IMG/VR virus record: IMGVR_UViG_3300044710_000137 | Location: 1-64,000 of that record | Direction: 5' to 3' (one strand) | Origin: a virus | Length of the DNA: 64,000 nucleotides | Shown: positions 1,201 through 63,800 of the stretch, one piece after another | Layout of the letters: each line of letters starts with the position of its first letter | How positions within the stretch are numbered: position 1 is the first letter of the stretch | Translations under genes and position numbers: made by a program | The notes under the pieces: model-generated | The model's input: only the letters and a program-made list of their open reading frames with translations | Databases searched by the model: none | What the model was told of the DNA's origin: nothing

Positions 1201-1290
1201 TGGCGAGCTTCGAGCTATTAATGCCCGCGTTCACCGGGCCAATGGGTGAGCGCTTCTCTGCCGCGCACCTCCATCCGCATTCCCGGCTGG
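1201..1290 (-). repeat. Family B element
   Basis: TGGCGAGCTTCGAGC..GCCCGCG..CGGGCCAATGGGTGAGCG..GCCGCGCA..CCGCATTCCCGG on + strand. Confidence 0.9.
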
Positions 1291-1316
1291 GGTGAGTGCG
1301 GCGCTTCCGCCACGTC

Positions 1317-1347
1317 CCAGCCACCAGCCACCGACCACCAGCCACCG
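1317..1347 (+). repeat. Heptamer tandem array
   Basis: ccagcca ccagcca ccgacca ccagcca ccg, 5 nt before ATG 1353. Confidence 0.85.
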
Positions 1348-1352
1348 CTCTA

Positions 1353-1847
1353 ATGGCCACCGATTCTCCATTTGTCCAAGTCCCCGTCGGCACGCCCATG
1401 TTCAATGTGGGCGCGGCAGCCGAGCCAAATACCGCCAATCTCTGCCGTACGTGGATCTTATTTTTTCAGGCCTTAGCCGGCTTGCTTGCCGAGTTAGGGC
1501 CGCTCATCGGGTTCTCGATTGTTTCGGGCGTGGAAGCGGTTAACGCCAGCCTTTACTATCCGGCGAGGTTTACGGGGACGGCGGATGTCGTGGTAGTTGT
1601 GGTCACGGCTTCAGACCCAAGTATTCCCTTGACGTTCGACATCTTCCAAAACGGGGTTTCCATCTTTGCAGTTTTACCAACCATTCCAGCAGGAGCATTA
1701 CCAGGAACAGTTTTTGAATTCGACGACTTGGTAACCCAACCATTGGAAATTCAGTACAACGATGTTTTCAATATGGGAATAAGCAGTGGATCTTCCTCAT
1801 GGCAATTCGTTGCAGTAGTCGAAACGTCGGAAGACAACACTACTTAG
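1353..1847 (+). CDS. Putative virion structural protein
   Basis: Beta-rich ORF in structural operon; start at ATG 1353 because the upstream extension is repeat sequence. Confidence 0.6.
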   Translation: MATDSPFVQVPVGTPMFNVGAAAEPNTANLCRTWILFFQALAGLLAELGPLIGFSIVSGVEAVNASLYYPARFTGTADVVVVVVTASDPSIPLTFDIFQNGVSIFAVLPTIPAGALPGTVFEFDDLVTQPLEIQYNDVFNMGISSGSSSWQFVAVVETSEDNTT

Positions 1848-1851
1848 TCTC

Positions 1852-1937
1852 CGGCGAGCTTCGAGCGTTTGATGCCCGCGCACACCGGGCAAATGGGTAA
1901 GCGCTCCCCTGTTGCGCACCTCCTACCGCATGCCCGA
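1852..1937 (-). repeat. Family B element
   Basis: CGGCGAGCTTCGAGC..GCCCGCG..CGGGCAAATGGGTAAGCG..CCGCATGCCCG. Confidence 0.9.
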
Positions 1938-1967
1938 GCCGCCCTGATCGCAACGCTGTCGCCACGC

Positions 1968-2001
1968 CCACCGATCACCAGCCACCAACCACCAGCCACC
2001 G
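1968..2001 (+). repeat. Heptamer tandem array
   Basis: C-rich 7-nt period ending CCACCG, 5 nt before ATG 2007. Confidence 0.8.
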
Positions 2002-2006
2002 ATCTT

Positions 2007-2111
2007 ATGTGCAATTGCGCCAAATGCCACCGCTGCGGCGGACCCGCCAAGGCCACCATGAACGGACGGCCCGTGTGCCTGCCGTGCATGAAAAAGGCCC
2101 AGGGTAAGTGA
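2007..2111 (+). CDS. 34-aa Cys-rich (Zn-ribbon-like) peptide
   Basis: CxxC...CxxC; GTGA overlap with next gene. Confidence 0.5.
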   Translation: MCNCAKCHRCGGPAKATMNGRPVCLPCMKKAQGK

Positions 2112-4621: not shown

Positions 4622-5103
4622 CATTTGAGCGCACGCGGGATATGGATGTGGTCCGGGAGATCATTACCCACCCCCGAATCTGGCCAAATGTTATCGACGA
4701 CTTCTCCCCGCCGCGCGAAGAGTTTCAGCCCATCGCTTCGGAATCCATTCTGTACATTCTGCCGAAAGAAGACGAGCGGGTCCTTGGCGTAATCTGTTTC
4801 GCCATGCTGAGCCATATCGTTTTCGAGATCCATCCGGTGTTATTGCCGGAGACCTGGTGGGAGTTTGGAAAGGCTAAAGAAGCCACGCTGGGCGCGATGG
4901 ATTGGATCTGGAAGAACACGGATTGCCAGCGGATTGTGGGATATGTACCCCTGCTTAGGCATCGGACTAAATTAAGGTTTCCTCCTAAATTGGGGATGGT
5001 TCAGTACGGTGTTAATCCGAAGAGTTTCTTGAAGGGTGGGGTTCTTGTCGATCAGGTCATGTTTGGCTTAAGTAGACCGGAGAATATCAAAATCAGTGTT
5101 TGA
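4618..5103 (+). CDS. P22 gp14-like (DUF2824, GNAT-fold) head assembly protein
   Basis: MTFERTRDMDVVREIITHPRIW resembles gp14 N-terminus; syntenic upstream of ejection genes. Confidence 0.75.
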   Translation: MTFERTRDMDVVREIITHPRIWPNVIDDFSPPREEFQPIASESILYILPKEDERVLGVICFAMLSHIVFEIHPVLLPETWWEFGKAKEATLGAMDWIWKNTDCQRIVGYVPLLRHRTKLRFPPKLGMVQYGVNPKSFLKGGVLVDQVMFGLSRPENIKISV

Positions 5104-5137
5104 TGCCGCGCCGGTCAGTCCTGCCCGGCGCTGGTAG
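5097..5137 (-). repeat. Family A hairpin element
   Basis: CTACCA GC-GCCGG G CAG GA CTG A CCGGC-GC GGCATCAAAC. Confidence 0.9.
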
Positions 5138-5143
5138 AAGCCT

Positions 5144-5386
5144 TCACCACACATCTTCGCTAAAAAGGGAATGCTTTCGGGTCTTGGTCTGTCCCGCATC
5201 GAACGCAAGCGCACCAGCTTGGAACCTGTCGAGAAAGTCGCCGGCATCGGTAACAAAGCCCTGCTCCTCTTGCGGAATCTTTTCCGCGCGCCCAAGATGC
5301 TTCCACACATCGCGCATGATCGCGGCGTGGCTGCTGCCGGTATAAATCCTGCCCTTGTGGCGAATAGCCGCATGCGCTACGAACAC
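5144..5386 (-). CDS. Small conserved phage hypothetical (cargo between two A elements)
   Basis: QGFVT..F.DR..A..A...GQ...LFSEDVW pattern; antisense to the operon. Confidence 0.7.
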   Translation of the reverse strand: MFVAHAAIRHKGRIYTGSSHAAIMRDVWKHLGRAEKIPQEEQGFVTDAGDFLDRFQAGALAFDAGQTKTRKHSLFSEDVW

Positions 5387-5395
5387 ACCCAGATT

Positions 5396-5440
5396 CTACC
5401 AGCGCGGGACGCGGCTGCGGCACGCGCGGCAACAACAACT
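5396..5440 (+). repeat. Family A hairpin element
   Basis: CTACCA GC-GCGGG A CGC GGCT GCG G CACGC-GC GGCAACAAC. Confidence 0.9.
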
Positions 5441-5472
5441 GATTTTCTTCTTTCACTTCCAGGAATAATTCT

Positions 5473-6384
5473 ATGGCAGCAGGCGCACTCATCGGCGGAA
5501 TAGGCAGTTTAATCGGCGGAGCTATCGGTTCAAATGCCGCCTCAACCGCCGGTGGAATCCTCGGCAACGCAGGCAACACCGCTGCCACGAATATCACCGG
5601 CGCAGGACAGACAGCCATCGGTGGCTTAACAGCTCCTACTCAATCCGCCCAGCAAGGCGTTACGCCGTACACCCAAGCCGGAGCCCAGGGCATCAGCACG
5701 CTGGCCGCCGCGCTCGGTCCAAACGGATCGGCCACCAAAGCCCTAAGCACACCGTTCAGTTTCAATCCCAGCGATCTACAGAACACTCCCGGCTATCAAT
5801 TTCAATTGCAGCAAGGCCTTCAGGCTAACAAGAACGCCATGACCGCCGGGGGATTAGGTGGTTCGGGAGCAGCCGTCAAAGGCGCGAACAACTACGCCAC
5901 GGGTTTGGCGGGAACGTACTTCCAAAACGCCTACGCGAACGCAAACAACACCTACCAGGTGAACCGCCAGAACACGCTGTATCAACTTTCCGCCTTGCAA
6001 AACCTCGCGGGAACCGGCCTCCAGTCCTCGGAGTACTCCGGCAATGTCGGATTGCAATCGGCAACTCAAGCCGGAAACTGGGGCATCGGCTCGCAAGAAG
6101 CCGCCATGCAAGCTTACATGACAGGCCAGCAAGGCGTGGCCGCGGGCGTCATAGGCAGTGCGAATGCCTGGAACCAGGCTCTCGGCGGGGTAGCAAATAG
6201 CGCAAATAGCCTGTCCTCCTTGAACTCGATGTACGGAGGGGGCGGAGTATTCGGCGGTGGATCGGGAAGTATGGGCGGGGGATGGGGTAATGATATTGCT
6301 CCTGTGATGCCTGGAAGTGGAAGCTATTCTAGTTCAACTGGGATGGGGGGAAACCCTTGGAGCACGTATAGTGGGGCTTTCTAG
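5473..6384 (+). CDS. DNA ejection protein, P22 gp7-like
   Basis: Gly/Ala-rich N-terminus, TPGYQFQLQQG motif, position after gp14-like gene. Confidence 0.75.
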   Translation: MAAGALIGGIGSLIGGAIGSNAASTAGGILGNAGNTAATNITGAGQTAIGGLTAPTQSAQQGVTPYTQAGAQGISTLAAALGPNGSATKALSTPFSFNPSDLQNTPGYQFQLQQGLQANKNAMTAGGLGGSGAAVKGANNYATGLAGTYFQNAYANANNTYQVNRQNTLYQLSALQNLAGTGLQSSEYSGNVGLQSATQAGNWGIGSQEAAMQAYMTGQQGVAAGVIGSANAWNQALGGVANSANSLSSLNSMYGGGGVFGGGSGSMGGGWGNDIAPVMPGSGSYSSSTGMGGNPWSTYSGAF

Positions 6385-6716
6385 AAAAGCAAAATCATTA
6401 TAAGTTGGTGAGCCTCGGAAGCTAAGGCCGCCAGCCTCTCACTTGGCAAATGGGTGAGCGAGTCAGTGCCGCGCACCCTTGGCCGCAGGGTTCTGATGGA
6501 CACAGGTAGCCGCACCTTCTCCACGGCGACAGGCTCTCTGTGTTTGGCGATGAAGCGCGCGGACCGCAATTGTTCTTTGCATGCCCCTCTGGGCAGGTCC
6601 GTCAGCCACTCCATCAAATCGAGAAAGTTCTCGAAGTCGTGTCGCGAGAAGTCCCAACAATCGCGCAACTCCTGACGGGTGTAATCCCGCGTCAGATCGA
6701 CGGTCTTGATGGGCAC
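6381..6716 (-). CDS. Hypothetical cargo gene between two B elements (C-terminus runs through a B element)
   Basis: Antisense ORF between ejection genes. Confidence 0.5.
   Translation of the reverse strand: MPIKTVDLTRDYTRQELRDCWDFSRHDFENFLDLMEWLTDLPRGACKEQLRSARFIAKHREPVAVEKVRLPVSIRTLRPRVRGTDSLTHLPSERLAALASEAHQLIMILLF
6406..6490 (-). repeat. Family B element
   Basis: TGGTGAGCCTCGGAAGC..GGCAAATGGGTGAGCG..GCCGCGCACCCTTGGCCGCA. Confidence 0.85.
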
Positions 6717-6773
6717 AGCCCCACTTTACCATTCCTAGCCAAGTAGGAATCCAACTTTAGCGCTGATGTGACC

Positions 6774-6853
6774 ACCAGCGGAAGCGTCACGCCACCCAAG
6801 ACGCGCTCAGCTCCGAGAGTCACGCGCGATCACCAGCAATTCAAAGCTCACAA
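6774..6853 (+). repeat. Family B element (ACCAGCGGAA subtype)
   Basis: ACCAGCGGAA..GCTCAGCTCCG..AAAGCTCACAA; similar to 28761 copy. Confidence 0.7.
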
Positions 6854-6880
6854 GCTAAGCATCATTCAAAAGGACCCACA

Positions 6881-8902
6881 ATGGGCGGATACGCAACCAT
6901 CCCTCTATCAGGTATTGCTCCTCAAATTCAAACTCCAACTCAAGCTCTACAAGGAGCCGCAGGAGTAGGAAGCACAGTAGCGGATACCCGTCTGCGTCAG
7001 CAGCAGGCGGAACAAATCGCGTTACAGAACCAGCAATTGCAAATCCAGTTGCAAGGCCAGCAGGCCATGACGCAGGCCTGGAGAAACGTCAACGGCCTCG
7101 GTCCTGGAACATCCGATGGATCGCAGGCCCCCGTGACACCACAACAGACCCCGCCCGTTGCCGCGGCAGCACCCACAACTCCAGGGCAGCTATCCGGCGC
7201 GCCCGTGCCTTTATCCGCGGTACCGGGTCTCACCACGCCTGTACCGACCTCGATGGCGCCCTCCGGCGCAGCTCCGGCCGGCGCGATGCCGCTTTCCCAG
7301 GAAGCCTCGACCATGGGTCAAGGTGCTCCCGCTCCAGCCCTACAAGGCGCTCCCATGCAAGCCCCTCCTGGCCAGCCTCAGGGCGCTCAGGCCCCAGCAG
7401 CTCAACCCACAAAGCCCATCACCACGGGCGCTCCCATAATGGACCGCTGGTTCGCCGAAATGCAAAGGCTGGGCGTCCCTCCCCAGATGATTATGGCGGC
7501 CCAGACCAACACCGTCAACTACCTGAAGGACCGCGCCGCGCTCGACGCCGACACACTGAAAAATAGCGCCGCGCAACACGACATGGCCTCAGGTGCGTGG
7601 ACCTCGTTCGCACAGCAGCCCATCGACTATAAGGCGCAAAACGAACAGGATTTCGTGAACAACCAGGTGCGCCAGGGTAATATCACGGTGCAACAGGCGC
7701 GCAACTTGGGAAGCCTCTATTCTCCCAATATGACCCCGGAACAGGAAAAGGCGGCGGATCAAAAATTCAACGCGATCGCCAGCCTCTACCTAAGCGCAAG
7801 CCAATTGGACCAGCGTGCCGAGCGGATGGGCACCGCGGCCCGCGGCCAAGGTTATGCCGCCGAAGCCGCCCTCAAACAGAACCAGGCCGAAAACCAGCAG
7901 GCCGCGGCGACGTTCCCGAGCGATCCTACCCAATTACCGCAATACCTCAGCTCGCAACCCTCCCGGATTCAAACCATGCTGGCAGGCAAATCCTACGCGG
8001 ACGCCAACGCCATCATGCAGAGGATTGCCCTGCCGCCGGCGGATTACGCCAAGCAGGTTCAACAGCAGACCGCCGCCGATTGGGATCAAGCGCTGAAAGC
8101 CGCGAAGGCCGGTGAATCGCAATACAATACGGTTCTCCAAAAGCTCGCCATCACTAATCCCGACGTCCGCGCCAATCTCCCGGATACGTGGGATCCCAGT
8201 ACGCCCAAGAAGGTGCTCGATCTCGCATTGAATCCGGCGCAGAGTCAAGCGGCCGGCAATCAGGACGCCAACCGCGACCAGCGCGCCGATGCCGCTGCCG
8301 ATCGGGCGCAAGCCGCCGCAGAGCGTGCCGAACGCTCCGGCCAACCCACGCCGTACCAGATACAGCAGGAAACCCGCCAAGACCTCGCCGCTAAGAACAA
8401 AGCCGACGCCGCAGCACTGACGGCCCAGAACCTCAACCGGCAATACAGCATCGCGGCCGCCACGCCCTCCGGAGCCATCTACCGCGACCCTAAAAGCGGC
8501 GTTCAGCGGACCATGCCGCCAAACGACGACAAGGGAACCAATACAGTGAGAGAGGGATTACTGGATAGCGGCGAAACCGCACGTCAACAGGCCGAAGAAG
8601 CGCTGGCTACCTCTAATGAACTGCAAGCCAAGCATGGCTGGGGCAAGTACGGCGCGCCTCCGTCGCCCACTCCGCCTACTCCAACCACCCCTCCTACCCC
8701 TACTCCCACCCCAACAAAGCCGCCGCAGGGCAGCGCTGCTTCAGCAACAGGCACGCCAAGGCCTGGGGCGCAGCGCGGCGGTCCGCAAGGACAGAACGCC
8801 CCTCCAGCCAGCGTTATCGCCAAAGTAGCCGAGGGCCAAACTTTCTACGGCCCGGACGGTAAAGCCTGGAAGAAGGTCAACGGTAAAGCCGTCGCCCAAT
8901 AA
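6881..8902 (+). CDS. DNA ejection protein, P22 gp20-position
   Basis: 673 aa Gln/Ala/Pro-rich helical protein between gp7-like gene and giant gene; AAGGA SD. Confidence 0.65.
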   Translation: MGGYATIPLSGIAPQIQTPTQALQGAAGVGSTVADTRLRQQQAEQIALQNQQLQIQLQGQQAMTQAWRNVNGLGPGTSDGSQAPVTPQQTPPVAAAAPTTPGQLSGAPVPLSAVPGLTTPVPTSMAPSGAAPAGAMPLSQEASTMGQGAPAPALQGAPMQAPPGQPQGAQAPAAQPTKPITTGAPIMDRWFAEMQRLGVPPQMIMAAQTNTVNYLKDRAALDADTLKNSAAQHDMASGAWTSFAQQPIDYKAQNEQDFVNNQVRQGNITVQQARNLGSLYSPNMTPEQEKAADQKFNAIASLYLSASQLDQRAERMGTAARGQGYAAEAALKQNQAENQQAAATFPSDPTQLPQYLSSQPSRIQTMLAGKSYADANAIMQRIALPPADYAKQVQQQTAADWDQALKAAKAGESQYNTVLQKLAITNPDVRANLPDTWDPSTPKKVLDLALNPAQSQAAGNQDANRDQRADAAADRAQAAAERAERSGQPTPYQIQQETRQDLAAKNKADAAALTAQNLNRQYSIAAATPSGAIYRDPKSGVQRTMPPNDDKGTNTVREGLLDSGETARQQAEEALATSNELQAKHGWGKYGAPPSPTPPTPTTPPTPTPTPTKPPQGSAASATGTPRPGAQRGGPQGQNAPPASVIAKVAEGQTFYGPDGKAWKKVNGKAVAQ

Positions 8903-11900
8903 TGCCTGCCGAACTGGGCGAAGGCTGGACGCTCGACGATTCGGCGTCCACCCCTCCCGCCTCACCAACACCCCCAACGCGCGCCCCGTCTAAGCCCCCT
9001 GCCGATCTCGGCGGTGGCTGGACCTTGACGGCGCCAGCTGCCCGCGCATCGTCCGGAGATCTCGGCGGTGGGTGGAACCTCGCTCCTCCATGGCCCTCTA
9101 TTGACCAAGCCGTCAGGATGCCGAGCGCTGCGAGCATGCAAGCGTCGATGGAGCAGGCGGAGCGTGATGCGTCAGAGGAAGGGGGCGACCAGCCGGCCCC
9201 TCCAACACCTACAAATATCCCTGGTGGAATTGCTTCCATCCCTGGCGGAGCCTTGCCTGGAATGCCCTCGCCAGCGGTTCCAGGACTCACCACGCCATTT
9301 GTCGGACACGGCATCGGCGGCGACTATCCCATCCCCAGCGGGCAAATCGTACAGGAACCATTCGAAACTATTCCGGCGCTCGAAACTATTGGCCGTGGTG
9401 TCACCCGGATGGCGCAGGCCACCCCGACGCCGACACATGCCGCAAATCCGAAACAAACCGCATTGGGCTTGAGCGAAGTCCTGGGCGGCACGATGCAGGC
9501 AGTCGGCCCCCTGGCCATCCCTGCGGGACTCGTCGCAGCCCCCGCAGAAGCAGCCATCTCGCTGGGCGCCGGTATCGTCGCCCGAACTGCCACGCCTGCA
9601 TTGCTCAAGAAAGCCGGAGTAGCGCCCGAATATGCGGACCTGGCGGGCGACGTCGCCGGTCTCCTCGCGGGTTACGCCGCTGGGCATATCCGTCTATCGC
9701 CAGAGCAACAGAACCTCATTGAAGTCCTCCAGGGTAAGGATGCGCCAGGCGCGGGCATTGAAGATCCCCAGGTCAATCTTCTACGCAACATGGTGGACCG
9801 CGGCGGAACTGAAGGCGAACGAGCTGCAGCGCAAGGGGCTCTATTCCGCAAGTTCGGTATCAAGTACGGACCCGAGGATCTTTCCGGCACAGCTACGCCT
9901 GAACAATCCCCCACCCCACAAACTGCCCCTACCCAGGAACCAGCAACCGGCGCGGCCGCGACGGGTGCGGCACCAACATCTAATGTTTCTCCTGAAGTTT
10001 CAACATCTCCAGTAAAGTTTTCTAAAGGTGAAGTCTATACCAACACTCAAGGAGAAGCCGCCCATATTACCCAAGTTTCACCAGATGGAACAAAGATCAG
10101 TTTTGAATTAACAGTACCAGGAGTGATAAAACCCTTAAAGCTGGATTGGCCTGTTGGGAAATTTCAGATGAGGATGGGATTAACTCCTCGAGCTGAAGCC
10201 CAAGAAGAATCAGGTGTTAATGCCGCGCCGGCCGTCCCGTCCGTCGCTGGTACAACCGTTCCCCAGCCGGGCGCCGTTGCGGATTCCAACGCCGTACCGA
10301 CGCTGCAAACACCCCCGCCAACGCCCACACCTACCGCGAATTCCCAGCCGGTGCAGGCGCCCCCAGAAACCGCAGGCGCCATACCTCCAACTCAACAGAA
10401 TCGACAGGAAGCGCAGCCCCTACCGGCAATTACCGGGCAGGAAGGTGCCGCCCAGCTACCGCAAATTGCCACGGCGCCCGAGGGTCTACCAGCACCAGAC
10501 GCGGCTGCGGCTGGTGCGGCAGCAACACCTAAATTTGATTACGCCTCCACTCAAGTAAACCTTCCTTCTTCAATAGCTAACAGCGTCATCTACTTTGGCG
10601 AAACCATCCCTGCAAAGATCCTTGCACCTGAAGCTGGTCATTCTACTGCTGGAGAAACAGGTTCCACGGGTAGAGAAACAGAACCACACATCACCATCAA
10701 ATACGGCCTTCATGATGAAGATCCTTCCGCCGTTCAGGAAATTCTGAAGAACGAAGGCCCCATCACAGCCACCTTAGGCAAAGCCTCCATCTTCAACACC
10801 GACGACAGCGACGTTCTCAAAGTGGGCGTGGAATCCCCGGACCTCCAACGATTGAATGGCCTGGTTAGCCAACTGCCTCACACGGACACCCATCCGACTT
10901 ACGAACCCCACGTGACCATCGCTTACCTGAAAAAAGGCGAAGGGGCGAAGTACGACGGAAAGAGCATTCCAGGGGTCACCGGACAAACGGTATCATTTGA
11001 TGCTGTCCAGTTCTCGGACAAAAATGGGCAACATACTGCCATTCCGTTGGCAGGAAATGGACAAGAATCAGGTGTTGATGGCGCACCAGCCACAGCCGTG
11101 TCCGGTGCTGGTAGACCCTCCGGCGCAAGCCAGCAGTTGCCTCATAGCCTCACTGGAGCGAAGCCACGCTATAGCTACGGCGCACGCCAGTATGATTTGG
11201 AGTTCGCCGACGATCTCGACAAGGCAGCCTACATCACTGCGCAAGACAAGCGCTCGAAGCATGACGCCGACTACCTGAAATGGGCGATGGGCCAGACCGG
11301 CGGATCCGAAATGGACGTGCGCCAAGCTGGCGCGAACGTGCGCCATTTTATCAAGGACCTGGCCAAGGCGAATTCGGATGCCAGATCCGGCGAGACGCGC
11401 TTGGACATTCCGGCACTGGCGCGCAAGATCTTGTCGAAGCCCACCACGGCCGCTACGGTTGTACCAGCCGGGGGCGCGCAGCCGACACCGGCGGCAGCAA
11501 CATCAAATGCTTCGCCTGAGCTAACTCCATGGAGAGAGCTATTTGAAAGATACATTACCAATGGAGCCTCTGAAACTGAAGCAAAGATTCTCACCGAAAG
11601 AAGGCTAGGAAAAGAACCAGAAAGCCAGAAAGCACGAAAGCCAGAAATCGTTACCCCACCAGCCCCGTTGACTCCTCCCGTAAATGAGAGCATAGTAGAA
11701 CCGGGACTACCCAATGGAACCCCAAGTTCAGAAGCTCATCCAGAACTGGCAGCGCCAGAATCCGGAGGCGGTGAAGCGAATGCGCCAGAAGGGCAACCTG
11801 GAGAGCTTGGCCCTAGCAGCCTTGAACCGGCAGGCGGAAGTACTGTCGAGCCTACTCCAGAAGGGAACGCCCCATCTGGAAGCGCAGGAGCTGGCGAACG

Positions 11901-47320: not shown

Positions 47321-47425
47321 TACGTCGGAGCCCGAGGAGACGGAACCCTGCGGTTCCTTCCCCTCGAACCCCTTCTTCCCCTATAACCCAACACCGAGCA
47401 CCCAGCACCCTCAAAGGATTTCCTC

Positions 47426-49906: not shown

Positions 49907-49957
49907 GTTGATTTGGTACCTCCTGACTTGAACTATAGCGCTTCCAAAGATTTATAT

Positions 49958-49995
49958 GTTGATGCCGCGCCGGTCAGGCCTGCCCGGCGCTGGTA
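49958..49995 (-). repeat. Family A hairpin element
   Basis: TACCA GC-GCCGG G CAG GC CTG A CCGGC-GC GGCATCAAC. Confidence 0.9.
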
Positions 49996-50339
49996 GAACC
50001 GTCCCAATGAAAATTCTGTCAGGGTCCGCTACAGTATGTGGAAATAGGGTATACCGCGATAGCGGCGATCTCTTCGCCCTGGACTTGCCCATCCGCCTCT
50101 CGATCAATAACGACGCCTGCACACTACCGCCAAAGACCACCACGGCTTCGGAGCATCGCATCGTCTGGGAGGACCACGGGGTTGTCACGGTGTCCAGGAT
50201 CCCCCCGGCCGGCGCGCCGATTTACTGGTGCCAGATGCGTCCCTCCAGATGGCGCGATATCGCCTCGGGCCTGGTCCGCGCGGTCTTCTCCGGACTAGGC
50301 GCTTTTCAGGGAAATTGACGCCCGCCACCCGAATGCTGG

Positions 50340-50381
50340 AACCAGCGCGGGACACGGCTTGTGGCCCGCGCGGCATCAACA
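50340..50381 (+). repeat. Family A hairpin element
   Basis: ACCA GC-GCGGG A CAC GGCTT GTG G CCCGC-GC GGCATCAAC. Confidence 0.9.
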
Positions 50382-50396
50382 TATAAGCCTTTGCAA

Positions 50397-53043: not shown

Positions 53044-53244
53044 ATGACCACCGATAAAACAGTGAACACGGGCATCAACTATAAGGAAGTGCCCATGGGA
53101 ACCGGATCGTATGGAACTCCCAAAGGAACGCCGGATGTAAAGAAAGCAGGGACAGTAGCGGACCTGAAATCGAAGACGTCGGATGATTCCAGTGGTAAGG
53201 CGGAAAATCTGGGAGCCATGGGCGACTATTGTTGCAAAAAGTAA
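53044..53244 (+). CDS. Small hypothetical protein
   Basis: AAGGA SD. Confidence 0.55.
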   Translation: MTTDKTVNTGINYKEVPMGTGSYGTPKGTPDVKKAGTVADLKSKTSDDSSGKAENLGAMGDYCCKK

Positions 53245-53252
53245 TTATGGGT

Positions 53253-53338
53253 TGGTGAGCCTCGGAAGCTGAGGCCGCCAGCCGTTCACCCAGGCCAATG
53301 GTGAGCGCTTGTTTGCCGCGTGTCACTTACCGCATGCT
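53253..53338 (-). repeat. Family B element
   Basis: TGGTGAGCCTCGGAAGCTGAGGCCGCCAGCCGTTCACC..GGCCAATGGTGAGCGCTTGTTTGCCGCG..CCGCATGC. Confidence 0.9.
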
Positions 53339-53373
53339 TGCCTGGTGATGGTGCCGCATCCCCGCCACGCCGA

Positions 53374-53853
53374 TCATCGCGGCTGGCCAATCAAAATAAT
53401 CCGCTTCCCAACCATGGGCAGCTCCGTTCGCTCGACAGTGTGCGTCCGGCTCGCCAGCTTGCATAGATGCTCCAGCCAGGGGCGCTCACTGTAAGTCTCC
53501 CAGAACGGGACCGCATCCGGTTTAATGCAGCACGGGCAAATCACGAACGGGACGCCATGACGCGCTGCGTACAACACGATATGGTCCGTAGCTTCATCCG
53601 GGTGCATGCCCAGCACCAGGCGATAGTCTTCAGGCCCGTCGTATCGGAAGTACGCGTACTTTTGCCCGGGGCGCCCTTTGGCTAACCGGTGCCGTTTGTC
53701 GATGGTTATGACGCGCCGGAACCCGCGCTCGCGCAACGCCGCCTGGAGATAACCCTTACCGCCAGCCACGTCTGCGACCAGGGAATTGTGGAAGCGCGAA
53801 AATCTGGACTCCACAAGAGTGGCGAACAGATCGAACCTCCGCGCATCGCCCAT
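53374..53853 (-). CDS. Small SAM-dependent methyltransferase-fold protein
   Basis: VADVAGGKGYL motif I, ITID, GMHPDEAT, ICPCC. Confidence 0.75.
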   Translation of the reverse strand: MGDARRFDLFATLVESRFSRFHNSLVADVAGGKGYLQAALRERGFRRVITIDKRHRLAKGRPGQKYAYFRYDGPEDYRLVLGMHPDEATDHIVLYAARHGVPFVICPCCIKPDAVPFWETYSERPWLEHLCKLASRTHTVERTELPMVGKRIILIGQPR

Positions 53854-53914
53854 TGGCTACAGTCTACAGTGCCCGGCTACCAAATGCCAGGACAGTGCCG
53901 CTACCCAAGACCGG

Positions 53915-54003
53915 TCGGGCCATAGCCTAAAGCCGCGTGGCACACCAGCACTGACGAGGTACAACTCAAGCGCGCGGGATGACCACAGCCGCGTAGCTCC
54001 CAA
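53915..54003 (+). repeat. Family B element (degenerate)
   Basis: TCGGGCCATAGCC..GCGTGGCA..GCGCGGG..GCCGCGTAGCTCCCAA. Confidence 0.6.
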
Positions 54004-54011
54004 AAGACTGC

Positions 54012-54923
54012 ATGCGCATATCCCCTCCCGATTGGGTAGCTAAACTCTCGAGTGAACTTCATCGCCTTCGTGACGCTGAAGACACTTCCATTGAAGCTGT
54101 AAACCTTCGCGCCAGGGAAGTAAGAGACCATGGCCCCGCGGTATTCAAGCTCCTCGTGGAACAAGCCCGTAGCGCTTCCGCCATGCTTGGGCTCCTCTGT
54201 GATTCAAGAGCCAACTGGTTGATGATCAAGAATACCGGCGCACCCTTCAGGATGCTCCAGGCCACCTTGGATATCGAAGGCATGGGGATCGCCGTGAACT
54301 ACACCTTGGGCTCGTTGATCGGCGGAAGGAACCCGGCCATCACCAAGGATTTCGTGGACATCCGCTTGTCGCCGCCCGAGAACTATCTGGTATTGGTTCA
54401 CGCCGGCACGCAGTTGAAAGCGGCGGATGTGCTGGAAGTGCTATTCAGGAACGCGTTTCTCCCGAACTAGGGCGCAATGATTCAAATCACGCAAGACGAG
54501 AACGGGGCCTTACTTTCGGACGACCGCGCCATCCTGCCGGCCGGAATGCTCGATCCGATCTTCGAATGGCTCCAGGATCTCAACAGCGACCGTCCGGACC
54601 AGCACCGGCGCTTCCGGCTGCCGATGGAACTCCCCGTCTGGCCGATGGATGGTGAGTCTCCGGACTTCTCCGCGACGATAACCGAGAGGGTCCTCCTCTT
54701 CGAAAAGACGCAATGGGCGGCAACCAGCGATAACGTGACACGGTTGTTTATGGCCGCGAGATCGCTGAATTCCGACGAGCCAAAATATGAGATTCTGGGC
54801 CCGGAAGTTGCGCGGCGTCCCACCGTGGGCGGCTATCGGCTAATCTGTCGCGATCCGATCAGTGCGCAGTTAAAGTACCAAGCCTATCGCTTGGGATTAC
54901 CACGCCCAGCCACCAGCCACTAG
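54012..54923 (+). CDS. Two hypothetical genes (54012-54470, 54477-54923)
   Basis: Co-oriented ORFs. Confidence 0.6.
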
Positions 54924-54929
54924 CCACCG
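54905..54929 (+). repeat. Heptamer tandem array
   Basis: ccagcca ccagcca ctagcca ccg between convergent genes. Confidence 0.75.
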
Positions 54930-54934
54930 CTTTT

Positions 54935-55876
54935 TCAGCCACGGTACTTAGGCTCGTCCCACCGCTCGATGACGTGCATCTTGAACACGCCCGCGGGCGT
55001 CTTCGCGCCTACCCCCGCGAACGGATCGCGGATACGCTCCACTTCGGTGACGCAGATCCGCACATCGTCGCCAAAGCGCTCCGCGATGGTCTTCACCGTT
55101 TCGAGGACGGGGAAGGGAACTGGGGTCTTACCCTCCGCGTTGTAGAGCCGTTTTCCAAGGCCGAAGTTGGACATGCCCACACCTTCGAGATCCTGCTTGC
55201 GCAGCGGGTACCAGTTCCACTTCGCATAACCGCCGATGCCATCCCAGTTCTGCGATGGCTTACATAGGCCGTCCAAGTAGGCTTTCACGGATTCGATGGG
55301 ATACACCTCGATGAAGTTCTCCGCGAGGAACGCTTCCAATTCCGCATTGATTGCCGCCGGATCGTAAATCCCCAGCGAACGCGCCAGAGTGCGGTATTCT
55401 TCGTCGCAGCCGGGATCGAGCGTGGAAACGGCCACGGCGGATTTCGTGGGCGCGATTGGTGGTGTTGGCTTTGATGGCTCGGTGTGTTGCCTAATCCGCG
55501 GGAAGTCTATCGTCCACCAGTCGAGAGAGCCAGTCAGCCTCGACGGCGGATCGAACCTTATCGGCGGACGCATCGACGCACTCCAATCATCCGGCTGGCG
55601 CATGTACCGATCCTCATGGCCGGGATTAGCCATATCCATAGCCAAACGCTCCGCGTAGCCGGGCGGCAGAATCCGGGTGTCCACGATATCGCGGATAGCG
55701 TGCTGGATGGCCTCCATTCGAAGTATTGGATCGGCCGAGGCGACCCGCTCGCGCAAAATGTGCCGCGCAATAACTTCGGCACCCTGGCCGCTGCGAATCA
55801 TCCTTTCCTCGAAGCTGCGTACTTCGATCTCGTGGGCCAGCGCCTCCGTTTCCATCACCGCTGTTTGAGTAGGCAT
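54935..55876 (-). CDS. Hypothetical protein (DP...IERWDEP C-terminus)
   Basis: Start MPTQTA at 55876; upstream extension overlaps portal. Confidence 0.7.
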   Translation of the reverse strand: MPTQTAVMETEALAHEIEVRSFEERMIRSGQGAEVIARHILRERVASADPILRMEAIQHAIRDIVDTRILPPGYAERLAMDMANPGHEDRYMRQPDDWSASMRPPIRFDPPSRLTGSLDWWTIDFPRIRQHTEPSKPTPPIAPTKSAVAVSTLDPGCDEEYRTLARSLGIYDPAAINAELEAFLAENFIEVYPIESVKAYLDGLCKPSQNWDGIGGYAKWNWYPLRKQDLEGVGMSNFGLGKRLYNAEGKTPVPFPVLETVKTIAERFGDDVRICVTEVERIRDPFAGVGAKTPAGVFKMHVIERWDEPKYRG

Positions 55877-55900
55877 ACCTGAAGCATAGCGCTTTCGCGC

Positions 55901-55938
55901 ACCCAACACCCAGCACCTAGAACCCAGCACCCACCCCC
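55901..55938 (+). repeat. Heptamer tandem array (CCCAGCA type)
   Basis: Upstream of portal start. Confidence 0.75.
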
Positions 55939-55940
55939 AA

Positions 55941-58838: not shown

Positions 58839-58884
58839 AGGCTCACGACTCCGATCTTACCAGCCCCTACCCCTTTTTAGGTAT

Positions 58885-58970
58885 TGGCGAGCTTCGAGCT
58901 TTTGGCGCCCGCGAACATCGGGCCAATGGGTGAGCGCTTCACTGCCGCGCACCTTTCGCCGCATGCCCGA
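58885..58970 (-). repeat. Family B element
   Basis: TGGCGAGCTTCGAGCTTTTGGCGCCCGCG..CGGGCCAATGGGTGAGCG..GCCGCGCACCTTTCGCCGCATGCCCG. Confidence 0.9.
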
Positions 58971-58999
58971 CTGATGACGGCGCTGCATTTCCCCCACGT

Positions 59000-59030
59000 C
59001 CAGCCACCAGCCACCGACCACCAGCCACCG
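59000..59030 (+). repeat. Heptamer tandem array
   Basis: ccagcca ccagcca ccgacca ccagcca ccg, 5 nt before ATG 59036. Confidence 0.85.
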
Positions 59031-59233
59031 CCTTTATGACGCGCGCCCAATCCAAAAAACACGGCAAGATCCCCTCGGACCTGGTGCCGTCGATCCTGCG
59101 CGGCCGCGGAAACAACCCGCCAGTGCCCGCCAGCCAATTGCGTAAATGGTCCCGCATGCGCCTCGAAACCTTCCTGCGTAACGGCCAGCCTCCAACCCCG
59201 GTAAACAAGCGTTTCTAAAAAGGATTTCTCTCC

Positions 59234-59686
59234 ATGTACACTCCCGCGTTCATCTCGAAGCAAGGCTCGTTCGATAGCGATATCAACGGCCAATTGAATC
59301 TGAATTTCCTCCTGGCCACCCTCTCCATGGGTCTTGGCGCGCCCTCCGCGATCGCCGCGTCCGGCGCCGTGAATCCGAACGTCTCGGGTTGCTACGTCAT
59401 CACCAAATCGACTGCCTTAGCGGCTCTGACTTTGGCCGCTCCGATTGCCGGCGCGCCGCAGTTCAATGCGCAAGGCGTCAACGTGGGCGGCAACGACGGA
59501 ACGATTATCTTCTTCACCTCGAATTCGGCGTATGCGCACACCGTCACGGCGACGGGACTCTACCAGGACGGCGCGGGCGATGTGAACCTGGCGACGTTTG
59601 CGGCGCATGCCGGGGCGTCGTTCGCCATCTGGGCGTACAACGGCAAGTGGAATACGCTGTTTTTGCAAAACGTCACGATGAGCTAG
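59234..59686 (+). CDS. Putative head decoration protein
   Basis: Beta-rich ALTLAAP...AHTVTATG protein in head module; AAGGA SD. Confidence 0.6.
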   Translation: MYTPAFISKQGSFDSDINGQLNLNFLLATLSMGLGAPSAIAASGAVNPNVSGCYVITKSTALAALTLAAPIAGAPQFNAQGVNVGGNDGTIIFFTSNSAYAHTVTATGLYQDGAGDVNLATFAAHAGASFAIWAYNGKWNTLFLQNVTMS

Positions 59687-59919
59687 TCTCTGGCCGTATT
59701 CGCTCGACGTGGAATGAACCGATAACTTTATCGCATGCGGCGCAAGTCACCACGAGTGTCCGGGTAGCTTTGTCGTAGGCGACTTTAGCCAGCGGGCTCC
59801 GGTGACACTTCGAATACAGGATCAACTGGCAGTCGTCATGGTTGCACCCAGGCGTAGCGCAATGCGCGTTCTGCAGGTCCTCGCTGTACAGCGCCATGGG
59901 CCAATCGTAACCCATCTCT

Positions 59920-60000
59920 ACCAGCGGAAGGTGCGCGGCAGACAGCCATAGCAAAGGTCACCACAAGCCCGCGCGCCACTGAACACATCGAAGCTCCCAA
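59920..60000 (+). repeat. Family B element (ACCAGCGGAA subtype)
   Basis: ACCAGCGGAAGGTGCGCGGCA..GCGCGCC..ATCGAAGCTCCCAA. Confidence 0.75.
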
Positions 60001-60111
60001 CCTATAAAGATTTTCCAACCTCGACCCTAGCGGCTGGGTCAGGGAATACCAACCTTCCCAGAATTAAAACCGTGACAAAAATATCATCCCCCAAAGGACG
60101 AAAGAACAATA

Positions 60112-61170: not shown

Positions 61171-61177
61171 CCCGAGA

Positions 61178-61256
61178 ACGGTGATTGGTGGCTGGTGGCT
61201 GGTGGCTGGTGGATTAGTTTTCCACCGGCCACTGACCACTGCCCACTGACCACTGC
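61178..61256. repeat. Heptamer arrays forming a long imperfect hairpin; 5' part repeated at 62528-62578
   Basis: (GGTGGCT)n GGTGGA TTAGTTT TCCACC ..(CCACTGA)n. Confidence 0.8.
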
Positions 61257-61274
61257 TTTCTTCTAAGGATTTCC

Positions 61275-62522
61275 ATGTTTCCTCCCAACCAAGAGCTGAC
61301 GATCAGCATGATTACCAATCGTGCCTTGATCGTCCTCGAAAACGACCTCAGTTTCTCAAACACCGTCGATAAGTCGTATAACGACTCGTTCGGCGTCGAT
61401 GGCGCCAAAATCGGCGCAGTCATCAACATCCGCAAGCCGGCGCAGTACGTTGTGAACGTCGGACCGGCCATGCAGCCCCAGAGCTTCGTCGAGACCTATG
61501 TCCCGCTGACGCTCACCACGCAGGCGCAAGTCAGCGTGAACTTCACCACCACGGAACTTCTGTTGAACGTCGACGAGTTCCAGGACCGCGTTCTGAAACC
61601 GGCTATCGCGGCGATCGCTAACAAGATCGACTCCGATGGAACGGCTCTCGCACAGCTCGTTCCCAACTTCGTCGGCATCCCCGGCGTGACGCCCAACCAG
61701 ATCCTGACCTACCTTCTGGCAGGCGTGCAATTGGATAACAACAGCACCCCGGACGATGGGGAGCGCTCCGTCACGGTTTATCCGCTGGCGCAAGCCACCA
61801 TCGTAGACGCCTTGAAGGGCCTCTATAACCCCCAGAAAATGATTGGCGACCAAAACATCAAGGGCGCCATGGGCTCGGGGTTCATCGGCGAATGGTACAA
61901 GGACCAGAACGTTTGGACTCAAACCATCGGCGCGCTCGGCGGGACTCCCGTCGTGAATCTCGGCGCCCAGACCGGCAGCTCCATCAACATCACCGGTTGC
62001 ACCGCGAACATCGTCAATTGGCTGAACCAGGGCGACAAGGTGCAATTCACGGGCGTTTATGCCGTGAACACGCAGTCCAAGGCCCAGATCAACACCCTCC
62101 AGGGCTTCACCCTAACGGCGCCGGCTTCGACCACCGCAGGCGGCACGGCAGTCCTGCAAATCTCCCCGGCCATCGTGACCACGGGAGCTCAGCAGAACGT
62201 CTCCAATTCGCCCATCAACGGCGCGTCTGTTCTGCCTTACGGCCTCTCCACCACTTCGACGCCCACCGAAAGCACCATCGCCGGCGTCAACACCCCGCAG
62301 TCGATGCTCTATCACAAGGACGCCTTCACGGTGGCCTCGGTCGATATGTTCGTTCCCAAGAATGTCGAAATGGGAGCGCGGGCTTCGGACAAACAGGTCG
62401 GTTTCTCACTCCGCATTCTGAGAAATTACGACATCTATCAGGATGGTCTACCGTGCCGCGTGGACGTGCTCTACGGCTGGCAGGCGATCCGTCCGCAGAC
62501 GGCCTGCATCATCACCGGCTAA
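61275..62522 (+). CDS. Major capsid protein, P22 gp5 coat family
   Basis: LTI.MIT..AL..LEN.L.F, GAKIG..INIRKP, LKPAIA.IANKID, YHKDAFT, CRVDVLYGW..IRP. Confidence 0.92.
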   Translation: MFPPNQELTISMITNRALIVLENDLSFSNTVDKSYNDSFGVDGAKIGAVINIRKPAQYVVNVGPAMQPQSFVETYVPLTLTTQAQVSVNFTTTELLLNVDEFQDRVLKPAIAAIANKIDSDGTALAQLVPNFVGIPGVTPNQILTYLLAGVQLDNNSTPDDGERSVTVYPLAQATIVDALKGLYNPQKMIGDQNIKGAMGSGFIGEWYKDQNVWTQTIGALGGTPVVNLGAQTGSSINITGCTANIVNWLNQGDKVQFTGVYAVNTQSKAQINTLQGFTLTAPASTTAGGTAVLQISPAIVTTGAQQNVSNSPINGASVLPYGLSTTSTPTESTIAGVNTPQSMLYHKDAFTVASVDMFVPKNVEMGARASDKQVGFSLRILRNYDIYQDGLPCRVDVLYGWQAIRPQTACIITG

Positions 62523-62527
62523 TTGAA

Positions 62528-62578
62528 AACGGTGGCTGGTGGTTGGTGGCTGGTGGCTGGTGGATTAGTTTTCCACCA
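62528..62578. repeat. Direct repeat of 61178-61226 after the capsid gene
   Basis: AACGGTG..TGGTGG.TGGTGGCTGGTGGCTGGTGGATTAGTTTTCCACC. Confidence 0.85.
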
Positions 62579-62633
62579 GTTGCCAGTCCATAGGCCCTAG
62601 CCACTCTCTCTTCAACAAGGAAAAACCACTACC

Positions 62634-63677
62634 ATGAAAAACCTCACTCGCAACTTCTTCGCCGGCCTCGCACTCGTCGCCGCGCTTCCCTTTTTGGGCC
62701 TGGCGCAGCTCGCCACCCAATCGACTACCACCACCGCGGCTATTTCCGCGCCCAACGCGGCCACCCCGTCCACCCTGTACGACACGTTCTACGTGACGTC
62801 CACCACGGGCATGCTGGCGCAAACCTCCCTCGGCACCATTCAGACCTGGCTGTATCTCGACAAAGAGGCGGCTCCCGTCATCGCGGTCCCCAGCACCACC
62901 TCTGTGACCGTGGCTCGCGGCAGCGGCAGCTATAACCTGGCGACTTCGCCCGGCGCGCACGTCTCGGGCGTCACCGTATTATTCGGCCCGTTCAACAACT
63001 TTGTCGGCTCCGATCCGTCCGGATCTTGCGTCTCGACGAACTACCAATACCTCCCGCTCGTCGCTACGGCCACCGGCCACCTGATTAACTGCGACTCGAT
63101 CTCCTCGACTGCGCAGATCTTCGCCCGGACCGGCCCCTCGTATTTCGTCAGCCCTGCCGGCTGCGGTATCTTGGCCACCACGACCGCGACTACCGACGAT
63201 GGCATGGTGACCCTGGCCGCGGGTAATGCCGTTCGCAAGCTGGTGACCAACACCACGGCGGGAACGACCAACTTCACCTGTCCCATCAATCCGCCCAGCG
63301 ACGCGCTGGCTAATGGGAAGGGCATTATCATCACCTCGGTCTCGGAAATGTACGGCGTGCAAGGTACGGGTGGTCTTTACACCTCTACCACGTCGCCCAT
63401 TATCGACTCCGTGACCTATGCCGCGGCTGGCGGAACCGCCAAGGGCACCGTGACTACCACGGCATGCGGAACCCTTACGCAAACGCCGGCGTCTCTGGTA
63501 ACGGCCGTAACCACGTCGGGGGTGTACAACACCGTCAATATGGCTTGCGGAACTCCGTTCTATGCCAATAGCGCAAGTCCGGTTTCACTGGTGTTCGACT
63601 TCCTGTTGGGAAACACCACTACAGCATTGACCTATCAATTGCCTGGGTTGGTTGTTTACTACGATCAACCTCTCTAA
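62634..63677 (+). CDS. Thr-rich protein with N-terminal signal peptide
   Basis: MKNLTRNFFAGLALVAALPFLGLAQ; VTVARG...A.AH motif. Confidence 0.7.
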   Translation: MKNLTRNFFAGLALVAALPFLGLAQLATQSTTTTAAISAPNAATPSTLYDTFYVTSTTGMLAQTSLGTIQTWLYLDKEAAPVIAVPSTTSVTVARGSGSYNLATSPGAHVSGVTVLFGPFNNFVGSDPSGSCVSTNYQYLPLVATATGHLINCDSISSTAQIFARTGPSYFVSPAGCGILATTTATTDDGMVTLAAGNAVRKLVTNTTAGTTNFTCPINPPSDALANGKGIIITSVSEMYGVQGTGGLYTSTTSPIIDSVTYAAAGGTAKGTVTTTACGTLTQTPASLVTAVTTSGVYNTVNMACGTPFYANSASPVSLVFDFLLGNTTTALTYQLPGLVVYYDQPL

Positions 63678-63710
63678 GACTGAAGTTCTTGGATGAAACT
63701 GCTCAGGGTT

Positions 63711-63800
63711 TGGTGAGCTTCGCGGCTTCCAAATCCTGAGCGGCATCCAGGCCAATCGTCGATGGTTGTGTGGCGCGCACCTTTGGCCGCATGCCCGGCT
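63711..63800 (-). repeat. Family B element
   Basis: TGGTGAGCTTCGCGGC..CATCCAGGCCAATCG..GCGCGCACCTTTGGCCGCATGCCCGG. Confidence 0.85.

Follow-up and report, generated by a model that had tools for sequence, protein, structure and literature searches.

The DNA analysed here (the window) comprises bases 1–64,000 of IMG/VR virus record IMGVR_UViG_3300044710_000137 (G000), an 84,545-bp record that is estimated to be 97% complete. The record represents an uncultured soil phage of the P22-like kind, encoding a P22-type portal protein and a P22-type coat protein. The window carries a 3397-amino-acid (aa) DarB-like methylase-helicase open reading frame (ORF) at 8902–19095 on the plus strand (PHROG 10089 and Pfam matches) and the gene for a tyrosine recombinase of 226 aa; the phage further encodes an endonuclease VII-like protein and an exonuclease of the PD-(D/E)XK type. 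A NusG-like gene with an NGN domain (41296–41865) and a gene for a LuxR/sigma-70-region-4 protein (46898–47320) are also present, suggesting that the phage has transcription control of its own. Among these genes lie 44 short, oriented repeat elements, which are the subject of this analysis. An initial annotation, made from the letters alone, had counted 26 elements of a family A and 18 of a family B; an automated scan returned the same total, as 26 A, 12 B, and 6 C, where C is a B-related subtype and B and C together account for the 18.

Family A is a 62-nucleotide (nt) element in which fixed arms surround a 10-bp interrupted stem with a loop of 4–5 nt, as seen in the 26-copy alignment. The arms, ..TGTTGATGCCGC (also given as ..GTTGATGCCGC) and GCTGGTAGAAC.., flank the hairpin, in which two features stay unpaired throughout: a T-C mismatch (columns 31/43) and a T bulge. 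The 26 copies in the window were collected by repeat finding and a pattern scan, and a covariance model, R1, was built from them. These seeds, which are matched by construction, score 46–76 bits, and elsewhere in the window no site exceeds 13 bits. Under the same model, non-seed copies score 47–72 bits: two in the rest of this genome, nine full and two partial copies in a complete 87.7-kb record (G001), seven in a 15.5-kb fragment (G002), and one on each of two small metagenome contigs.

In the seed copies, 91.5% of the 260 stem cells are paired, and 54 cells are altered on both sides. This pairing was reached by none of 500 shuffles, and controls in which the stem was slid gave 31–48%. The non-seed copies, which were aligned by fitting them to the model, show pairing in 95.7% of 210 cells (0 of 500 shuffles). 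G-U pairs were found in none of the 260 seed cells and in two of the 210 non-seed cells, and the recurrent stem mismatches are pyrimidine-pyrimidine. With few or no G-U pairs and with mismatches of this type, both strands of A would fold equally well. Since both strands are foldable, and since A occurs in both orientations relative to genes, even within one ORF, these results suggest that the structure is one of DNA and not of RNA. A thus looks like a palindrome similar to the repetitive extragenic palindromes (REPs), acting at the DNA level. For none of the elements was there an Rfam match at the gathering score, the only Rfam matches in the 64 kb being two tRNAs. In addition, none of the 17 A hairpins in the 22–41 kb region is terminator-like or promoter-like, and intrinsic terminator-like sites (a GC-rich stem directly before a T run) numbered 18, compared with 18.5 in shuffled sequences. 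The elements are thus explained neither by an Rfam family nor by a terminator pattern.

The cores of A, that is, the covarying centre of 24–27 nt, fall into 25 types at ≤2 edits when all 48 are compared. Two or more members are present in 11 of the 25 types, and four types are common to different genomes, whose proteins are 36–82% identical or not detectably related. The ends of the A pairs 5085/5389, 38120/40003, and 49944/50332 are 93–98% identical, and their cargo is unrelated. Because the cargo of these pairs shows no similarity, the pairs did not arise by deletion from the recombinase-bearing unit. Either the element has spread by copying, both from locus to locus and from phage to phage, or strong constraint acts on particular cores. 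After the stem, 12 of the 28 A copies of this genome carry GCTGGTAG, with its GTAG, and the others carry GGTAC, GGTAA, GGTTC, and the like, a count made without reference to the direction of the tag in published REPs.

A stop-free frame of at least 80 codons crosses 24 of the 28 A copies, and no long open frame crosses the other four. Among the 26 window copies, two sense frames are stop-free in 23 and 21 copies and one antisense frame in 25, and the remaining three frames are stop-free in 3, 15, and 7. In these open frames A reads as an Ala/Pro/Gly-rich peptide in either orientation, and its AT-rich side holds start and stop codons. The A peptides start or finish small ORFs, as in the ORFan 30350–30703, which has no homologue but itself, and they separate domains in the giant DarB-like protein, where five A copies of alternating orientation partition the N-terminal 870 residues. 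The compensatory changes in the stem alter the encoded residues, indicating that A is conserved at the nucleotide level; a reading of A as a peptide motif was dropped for this reason.

Family B is ~125 nt long, with 12 strong nhmmer matches in the window (69–105 bits) and four beyond it, and C is ~105 nt long, with six copies in the window and four beyond it, all in one genomic orientation. The C profile weakly matches several B copies on the opposite strand, so that B and C are in part inverted forms of each other. The initial annotation had called all elements structured. This held for A, with its covarying hairpin and a model that finds non-seed copies, and was not confirmed for B, which forms no single structured element: RNAalifold gave three pairs and −0.28 kcal/mol, with no consensus fold. 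B as a coding element was likewise rejected, since it has no frame that stays open throughout the family: several copies contain stop codons, in the sense frames as well as in the two conserved antisense frames. Two nearly empty pairs were found, B74459/C74589, in which the elements are adjacent, and B20452/B20695, in which they are 115 nt apart.

By eye, A, B, and C have a common 5′ motif, TTAG-G-TGTTG-nTG-C, and a common 3′ motif, GCTGGT(A/G)G; A and C end in GCTGGTAG or GCTGGTGG. The octamer GCTGGTGG, the Chi sequence of E. coli (the host of the phage may differ), is the second most frequent octamer, with 35 copies in 84.5 kb. Most of these lie in tandem heptamers beside B or between genes. 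The heptamers, CCAGCCA (GCTGGTG on the other strand), occur between genes, and in three cases the array immediately follows B and is closely followed by an ATG. Another family of tandem heptamers, CACCCAG/AACCCAG, occupies 41858–41925, 47378–47417, and 55900–55939; one of its arrays adjoins the end of the NusG-like gene, and another lies shortly ahead of the portal gene. As judged by eye, no obvious Shine-Dalgarno sequence precedes several of the genes located after C elements or heptamers.

The orientation of each element was set by its AT-rich, CpG-poor side, which is the 5′ or outer side; the inner side carries GCTGGT(A/G)G. The outer side has the lower G+C content in 27 of the 28 A copies, in 15 of the 16 B copies, and in 8 of the 10 C copies. 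In the last 60 nt of the outer side of A, the G+C content is 0.44–0.47, with 0.8–1.1 CpG per 30 nt, compared with a genome mean of 2.96. Thus, the elements do face a CpG-poor side, as initially described, and the hand counts of their arrangement were reproduced exactly by the automated scan: 32 of 43 adjacent pairs alternate in direction (strand shuffle, p=0.0016), and 14 of the 16 back-to-back pairs are of one family (label shuffle, p=0.002). For A alone, 19 of 25 neighbour pairs alternate (p=0.006), and for B and C alone, 16 of 25 (p=0.15). The gaps in the 16 inner-facing pairs are 115–1824 bp, with a median of 330 bp, whereas the median of the other kind is 897 bp. The described absence from the methylase-helicase core (11.6–19 kb), the portal gene, and the coat gene was also reproduced, with no copy in any of them. 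The outer side abuts the neighbouring gene or domain and the inner motif lies opposite, so that the inverted pairs enclose gene- or domain-sized modules. Conversely, since C runs up to start codons and B lies behind neighbouring genes, part of the bracketing may consist of gene-end signals. At window positions 9991–10202, the AT-rich, CpG-poor zone runs into the neighbouring coding sequence (G+C 0.35–0.45, 2–4 CpG in ~210 nt), and the last 100 nt of gene 71536–71943, outside the window, have a G+C of 0.39 and no CpG.

For the giant DarB-like protein, module borders could be compared with those of relatives. A 2H-phosphoesterase module (window 10540–11060, aa 548–719; 2′-5′ RNA ligase superfamily; Pfam 2_5_RNA_ligase2, 35.3 bits; the Acb1 model below its cut-off) has homologues in G001 (57% identity) and in a 40-kb fragment, G003 (46%), over residues 547–716/719. 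The domain may provide a counter-defence activity carried by the DarB-like protein. It is bordered by A peptides at aa 526–547 and 720–740; the homology with G003 starts at aa 547, and that with G001 ends at aa 718–719. The A copies around the module, 10479 and 11060, are mutual best matches, 89% complementary over 57 nt. In G003, the DarB-like core is 65% identical and A is absent; the module stands ~60 residues before the core, whereas here an A(+)..A(−) unit (residues 720–872) lies in between. In G001, a shorter, non-A linker stands opposite the A at aa 526–547, and its own A upstream of the module is oppositely oriented.

Differences between relatives were also observed at whole genes. Three tandem paralogues that match the SU10 adaptor family (74690–75456, 75650–76398, and 77274–78067 of G000) each follow a C, and the three related adaptor-like paralogues of G002 each follow an A instead. 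The best matches (55% versus 46% and 63% versus 52% identity) suggest that the order of two of these genes is swapped between G002 and this genome. Upstream of gene 79940 and its relatives, A is found at 12 nt in G000, ~55 nt in G002, and ~700 nt in G001.

Two A patterns run over viral contigs gave 16 and 8 stretches, with true A in the G001 and G002 records only, and a looser A pattern gave, among the matches listed, mostly single chance matches. The B pattern matched G002 alone; G002 has one B, and G001 has neither B nor C. A metagenome scan gave at least 120 stretches, of which 100 were screened with R1, yielding two true A (on contigs of 1.1–1.3 kb) and one weak match. A scan of bacterial genomes also gave at least 120 pattern-matching stretches, and R1 found A in none of the 100 screened. 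No near relatives were found among deposited phages, the portal identity being at most 38%, and a scan of viral contigs with the coat protein found nothing. The phage sequence is present in two soil metagenome runs, one of which is its likely source; identical short contigs at a depth of 2–4 in the second run, from another study (checked over 22500–42499), indicate that the phage occurs beyond one sample.

The reading that we favour, while holding it tentatively, is that the three related families, with their 44 elements, serve as oriented, REP-like recombination joints at the DNA level. The short repeats would be copied or converted between junctions, and modules would be joined, swapped, or inverted there during replication or co-infection. 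Alternation would be kept because directly repeated joints delete the intervening DNA, whereas inverted joints do not; such a logic of deletion between direct sites is described for the alternation of dif modules (PMC13141974). A would be tolerated inside genes because one frame per orientation reads as an Ala/Pro/Gly linker, and with these linker frames, domains could be inserted into the giant DarB-like protein without loss of the frame. This protein is probably packaged and injected, by analogy with P1 DarB. Candidate enzymes are the 226-aa Xer/invertase-like tyrosine recombinase, the endonuclease VII-like protein, and the PD-(D/E)XK exonuclease.

The evidence for recombination joints is of several kinds. 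The module borders at aa 547 and 716–719 coincide with the A copies at aa 526–547 and 720–740, an A(+)..A(−) unit stands where G003 has none, and the position ahead of the adaptor-like paralogues is taken by A in G002 and by C in this genome. Nearly empty pairs, the covariation of the hairpin, the significant alternation and same-family pairing, and the presence of recombination genes point in the same direction, as do the near-identical pair ends around unrelated cargo and the core types common to diverged genomes.

Several observations weigh against recombination joints. No excision, circle, or inversion was observed, in material that consists of assembled contigs breaking at repeats: on 22500–42499, the assembled soil contigs break at A, and the sides of the listed joints (20–59 letters) are the repeats themselves. 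The 87 ORFs of this phage that were searched gave no match to a transposase, RAYT, or HUH family (E≤0.001). The recombinase homologue in G001 (236 aa) is not beside any A, the nearest being ~26 kb away. The two A of one pair mostly have different cores, so that a pair does not amount to the simple inverted termini of a single insertion. Of the 107 predicted ORFs of this genome, 26 have a tblastn match in G001, 3 of 15 inside pairs versus 23 of 92 outside (p=1, an uninformative comparison), and the relatives are too diverged for breakpoint mapping at the nucleotide level. The AT-rich outer side is not accounted for by this reading. Finally, 7 of 10 C extend as far as the start codon, ATG, of an ORF on the plus strand (119–673 codons), and 9 of 16 B lie ≤40 nt behind a co-directional stop codon (tallied by reading), as would suit expression signals.

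The initial proposal, that the pairs act as ends of exchangeable cassettes, accordingly survives in part: the elements do lie at module junctions, and relatives do differ there, whereas no transposase was found and the ORFs inside pairs are no less conserved. Cassette exchange is therefore no more than plausible. A phage-encoded, structure-guided form of it, in which a minimal tyrosine recombinase, or else a nuclease that cuts cruciforms, would recognise hairpin joints with discrete core 'addresses' and thereby move genes and in-frame domains, appears unlikely to us.

The placement of B and C raises the explanation that the elements punctuate gene expression, with C as promoter or leader, B as a signal located behind genes, and A as a hairpin that marks boundaries. 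On this view, elements would lie back to back only because genes have 5′ and 3′ ends, with morons inserted between the signals. This explanation is a serious rival, strongest for B and C, and the start and stop codons on the AT-rich side, the TTGACA box in C, and the NusG-like and LuxR/sigma-region-4 proteins agree with it. In T4-type phages, moreover, promoter-early stem-loops (PeSLs) join a promoter and a stem-loop at variable genes (PMC2839356, PMC4122927). We nevertheless consider it somewhat unlikely: five alternating A lie inside one ORF, the A stems of the seeds contain no G-U pairs, the A hairpins are not terminator-like and terminator-like sites are no more numerous than in shuffles, no element has an Rfam match, B lacks a consensus fold, and the spacing from the TTGACA box of C to a TA-rich box is 20–21 nt (hand count), too long for a sigma-70 site.

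A dedicated site-specific system of the attC or dif type would instead have the small tyrosine recombinase recognise either the folded hairpin of A or a core site within it, with the variable palindromic core setting which sites pair, and modules inverted, excised, or captured. The fixed arms, variable complementary centre, and fixed unpaired positions of A suit such a system, as does the recurrence of discrete core types within and between genomes, and the orientation alternates as it does in dif modules (PMC13141974). The recombinase lies inside an A pair, and its short length is kept in G001. Against the NCBIfam XerA, invertase, and XerD models it scores below all cut-offs; its best sub-threshold matches are of the XerA/integron type and a tyrosine invertase. 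The scores for integron integrase, however, are far below threshold (TIGR02249, 37.6 bits against a cut-off of 265; PRK15417, 22.9 against 435), the recombinase of G001 is ~26 kb from the nearest A, and an excisionase-type gene that adjoins the recombinase suits an ordinary integration module. A also lacks the end consensus of attC, the sites are inverted and not direct, and the assembled contigs yielded no junction reads. We therefore regard this explanation as improbable.

Purely selfish elements of the REP or MITE (miniature inverted-repeat transposable element) kind, mobilised by a host enzyme such as a RAYT, of no use to the phage, and tolerated only at junctions and linkers, would share with A the REP-like build, the complementary stem sub-families, the inverted neighbours, and the intragenic copies known for tagged REPs (PMC3733652). 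In-frame palindromic insertions are likewise known for the Rickettsia palindromic elements (RPEs; PMC10969869), and near-identical copies at distant loci fit this explanation as well. It is quite unlikely, in our view, given that no A was found at the 100 bacterial loci screened and that only 12 of 28 copies have GTAG after the stem. In addition, the arms are kept across very diverged genomes, and the position of A before the 79940 gene is kept, which suggests constraint.

It is very improbable that the elements are loading or recognition sites for a directional enzyme acting through GCTGGT(A/G)G, either Chi-like for a RecBCD-type nuclease or ops-like for the NusG paralogue: the abundance of GCTGGTGG, the shared ends of A and C, the NusG-like gene, and the GGTAG contained in ops would agree, but the motif lies on either strand relative to transcription (~10 A sense and 17–18 antisense), the motif alone leaves the covarying hairpin unexplained, and the Chi comparison uses E. 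coli, which may not be the host. Three further candidates were dropped: hairpin promoters of the N4 type, as the giant protein is DarB-like and not an RNA polymerase; IS200/IS605 ends, as there is no HUH protein and the copies are inverted; and telomere palindromes.

Table 1. Elements of families A, B, and C in the window, with the associated recombinase gene and heptamer arrays. Strands of C are given in B-like orientation. Scores are in bits (R1 for A, nhmmer for B and C) unless stated otherwise.
Feature	Position	Strand	Score	Remarks
A, short core	5085–5144	+	65.2	core identical to G001 copy L133:6472
A	5389–5450	-	72.8	95.6% identical over 45 nt to 40003 copy
A	9930–9991	-	69.9	in giant ORF, aa 343–364, read in frame
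A	10202–10260	+	66.2	in giant ORF, aa 434–453, in frame
A	10479–10540	-	72	in giant ORF, aa 526–547; left border of 2H-phosphoesterase module
A	11060–11121	+	67.2	in giant ORF, aa 720–740; right border of 2H-phosphoesterase module
A	11454–11515	-	63.1	in giant ORF, aa 851–872; relative orientation as G001 copy L132:6995 before core
A	23923–23984	-	46.3	C-terminus of ORF 23726–23998, then ATG 23999
A	24941–25002	-	68.5	C-terminus of ORF 24687–25040, then ATG 25041
A	25418–25479	-	64.1	crossed by no open frame ≥80 codons
A	27218–27279	+	69.2	N-terminus of ORF 27199–27561
A, divergent arm GAGCTGC	27830–27891	-	58.4	C-terminus of ORF 27558–27911
A	27927–27988	+	61.4	N-terminus of ORF 27908–28255
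A	29882–29943	-	61.9	end of ORF 29217–29945
A	30357–30418	+	69.3	N-terminus of ORFan 30350–30703
A	30628–30689	-	61.4	C-terminus of ORFan 30350–30703
A	30921–30983	-	69.6	
A	32619–32680	+	68.4	end of minus-strand ORF 32602–32907
A	32833–32894	-	71.3	N-terminus of minus-strand ORF 32602–32907
A, short core	33942–34000	+	63.2	crossed by no long frame
A	36004–36065	+	66.8	end of minus-strand ORF 35984–36307; 98% complementary over 40 nt to 5389 copy
A	36200–36261	-	76.1	N-terminus of minus-strand ORF 35984–36307
A, short core	38120–38178	+	64.6	left border of recombinase-bearing unit
A	40003–40064	-	75.3	right border of recombinase-bearing unit
A, short core	49944–50003	+	66.8	97.5% identical over 40 nt to 5085 copy
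A	50332–50394	-	67.7	crossed by no long frame
B	1192–1317	+	98.9	then CCAGCCA heptamers, then ATG 1353
B	1842–1969	+	87.4	then heptamers
B	6396–6528	+	84.5	12 nt past stop of gene 5473–6384
B	19479–19602	-	81.8	directly past stop of minus-strand gene 19602–20429
B	20452–20579	+	81.6	nearly empty pair with 20695–20822
B	20695–20822	-	78.7	
B, divergent	21196–21325	+	68.9	
B	22995–23118	+	74.1	
B	31372–31499	+	97.5	left border of unit 31372–32087 holding gene 31510–32007
B	53243–53372	+	91.7	left border of unit 53243–54016 holding minus-strand ORF 53374–53853
B	58876–59001	+	104.6	then heptamers, then ATG 59036; left border of unit 58876–60018
B	63702–63828	+	79.5	25 nt past stop of gene 62634–63677
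C	6764–6874	-	76.8	+ strand reads ACCAGCGGAA...AAG; ends 6 nt before ATG 6881
C	28753–28860	-	72.6	ends at ATG 28861
C	31976–32087	-	77.3	right border of unit 31372–32087
C	43655–43762	-	84.9	
C	53913–54016	-	48.0	runs into ATG 54012; right border of unit 53243–54016
C	59913–60018	-	66.9	right border of unit 58876–60018
Tyrosine recombinase, 226 aa	38953–39633	-	Pfam Phage_integrase 1.1e-22	inside A pair 38120/40064; candidate enzyme
CCAGCCA heptamer arrays	647–708, 1299–1360, 1953–2014, 40552–40604, 48016–48077, 54906–54942, 58982–59043, 61174–61226, 62525–62577			

The large terminase is encoded in two separate ORFs that are 6.7 kb apart, 44460–45242 and 51915–52703, with matches to Terminase_6N (the N-terminal ATPase domain, 2.8e-18) and Terminase_6C (the C-terminal nuclease domain, 4.7e-05). 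Between the two halves lie ~20 small ORFs and the A pair 49944/50332, and no A, B, or C element was found at either terminase break. The first of the two Rfam tRNAs (23479–23593, minus strand, 115 nt, 50.5 bits) was not reported by ARAGORN and may contain an intron or a long insertion. For the second (40711–40783, plus strand), ARAGORN gave an undetermined two-letter anticodon.

Phage genomes are mosaic, and the joints of exchange are rarely visible; here they are apparently explicit, oriented, and countable (44 in 64 kb). If exchange occurs at them, the elements would provide a concrete mechanism for swapping accessory and counter-defence modules, such as the 2H-phosphoesterase domain, with genes and domains treated alike. 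If the structure-guided form were true, it would amount to a system of the integron or dif type that operates on protein domains, serving an injected giant anti-defence protein. If the elements are expression signals instead, they still define a regulatory grammar of an uncharacterised phage group. In addition, the covariance model, with its 10 covarying pairs, is a handle for searching for the same system elsewhere.

Each of the closest described systems, namely tagged REPs, dif modules, attC, PeSLs, and RPEs, departs from the elements in at least one defining feature of membership. The GTAG-tagged REPs (Di Nocera et al., 2013, PMC3733652) resemble A in being small, GC-rich, imperfect palindromes in many copies, with complementary stem sub-families, stems with fixed mismatches or bulges, close opposite-facing units, and some intragenic members. 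A differs in being phage-borne, in lying mostly in open frames as a linker, in its longer conserved arms, in the lack of a RAYT among the 87 ORFs, and in forming pairs, 130–1800 bp apart, that enclose genes and not compact clusters. Furthermore, the tagged REPs are mainly extragenic and downstream of genes, whereas a long frame crosses 24 of 28 A.

For the dif modules of Acinetobacter Rep_3/OrfX plasmids (Ambrose et al., 2026, PMC13141974), asymmetric sites bound gene modules, as they do here. Two kinds of module alternate according to which side of the site faces inward, the exceptions being fused modules; module content varies between related replicons, and a Xer-type tyrosine recombinase is implicated. 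The pdif site as described there, however, is a 28-bp duplex with two fixed arms and a 6-bp spacer, used by host XerC/XerD, whereas A is 62 nt long with a covarying hairpin centre. The sites here also lie inside coding sequence, and their recombination is a proposal drawn from sequence.

Like A, attC is an imperfect palindrome whose ends are conserved, whose centre is paired but variable, and in which certain unpaired bases are fixed, and integron cassettes likewise consist of small, promoterless-looking genes flanked by such sites, with a tyrosine recombinase in the genome. The end boxes of attC have the consensus RYYYAAC ... GTTRRRY. Compared with this consensus, A differs in both end sequence and polarity, and it forms dispersed inverted pairs and not direct arrays. 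The attI site and common promoter of an integron are absent here, A copies are translated, and the recombinase fails the integron-integrase model.

The PeSLs of T4-type phages are, like the present elements, short repeats that border accessory phage genes, and they are held to mediate modular shuffling by recombination, with mini-circles shown experimentally (PMC2839356, PMC4122927). PeSLs are intergenic, combine a promoter with a terminator, and are co-oriented with transcription, whereas A is not terminator-like and lies in both orientations and in ORFs. The RPEs resemble A as in-frame palindromic insertions in genes whose peptide is tolerated; they are bacterial, measure ~150 bp, and do not form inverted pairs that surround modules, whereas A is 62 nt and readable both ways (PMC10969869). 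No target-site duplication was seen at the flanks of A on inspection by eye. Overall, in the inverted terminal repeats of a MITE or mobile insertion cassette, a likeness is found to the 16 inverted pairs described here, including the nearly empty B/B and B/C pairs.

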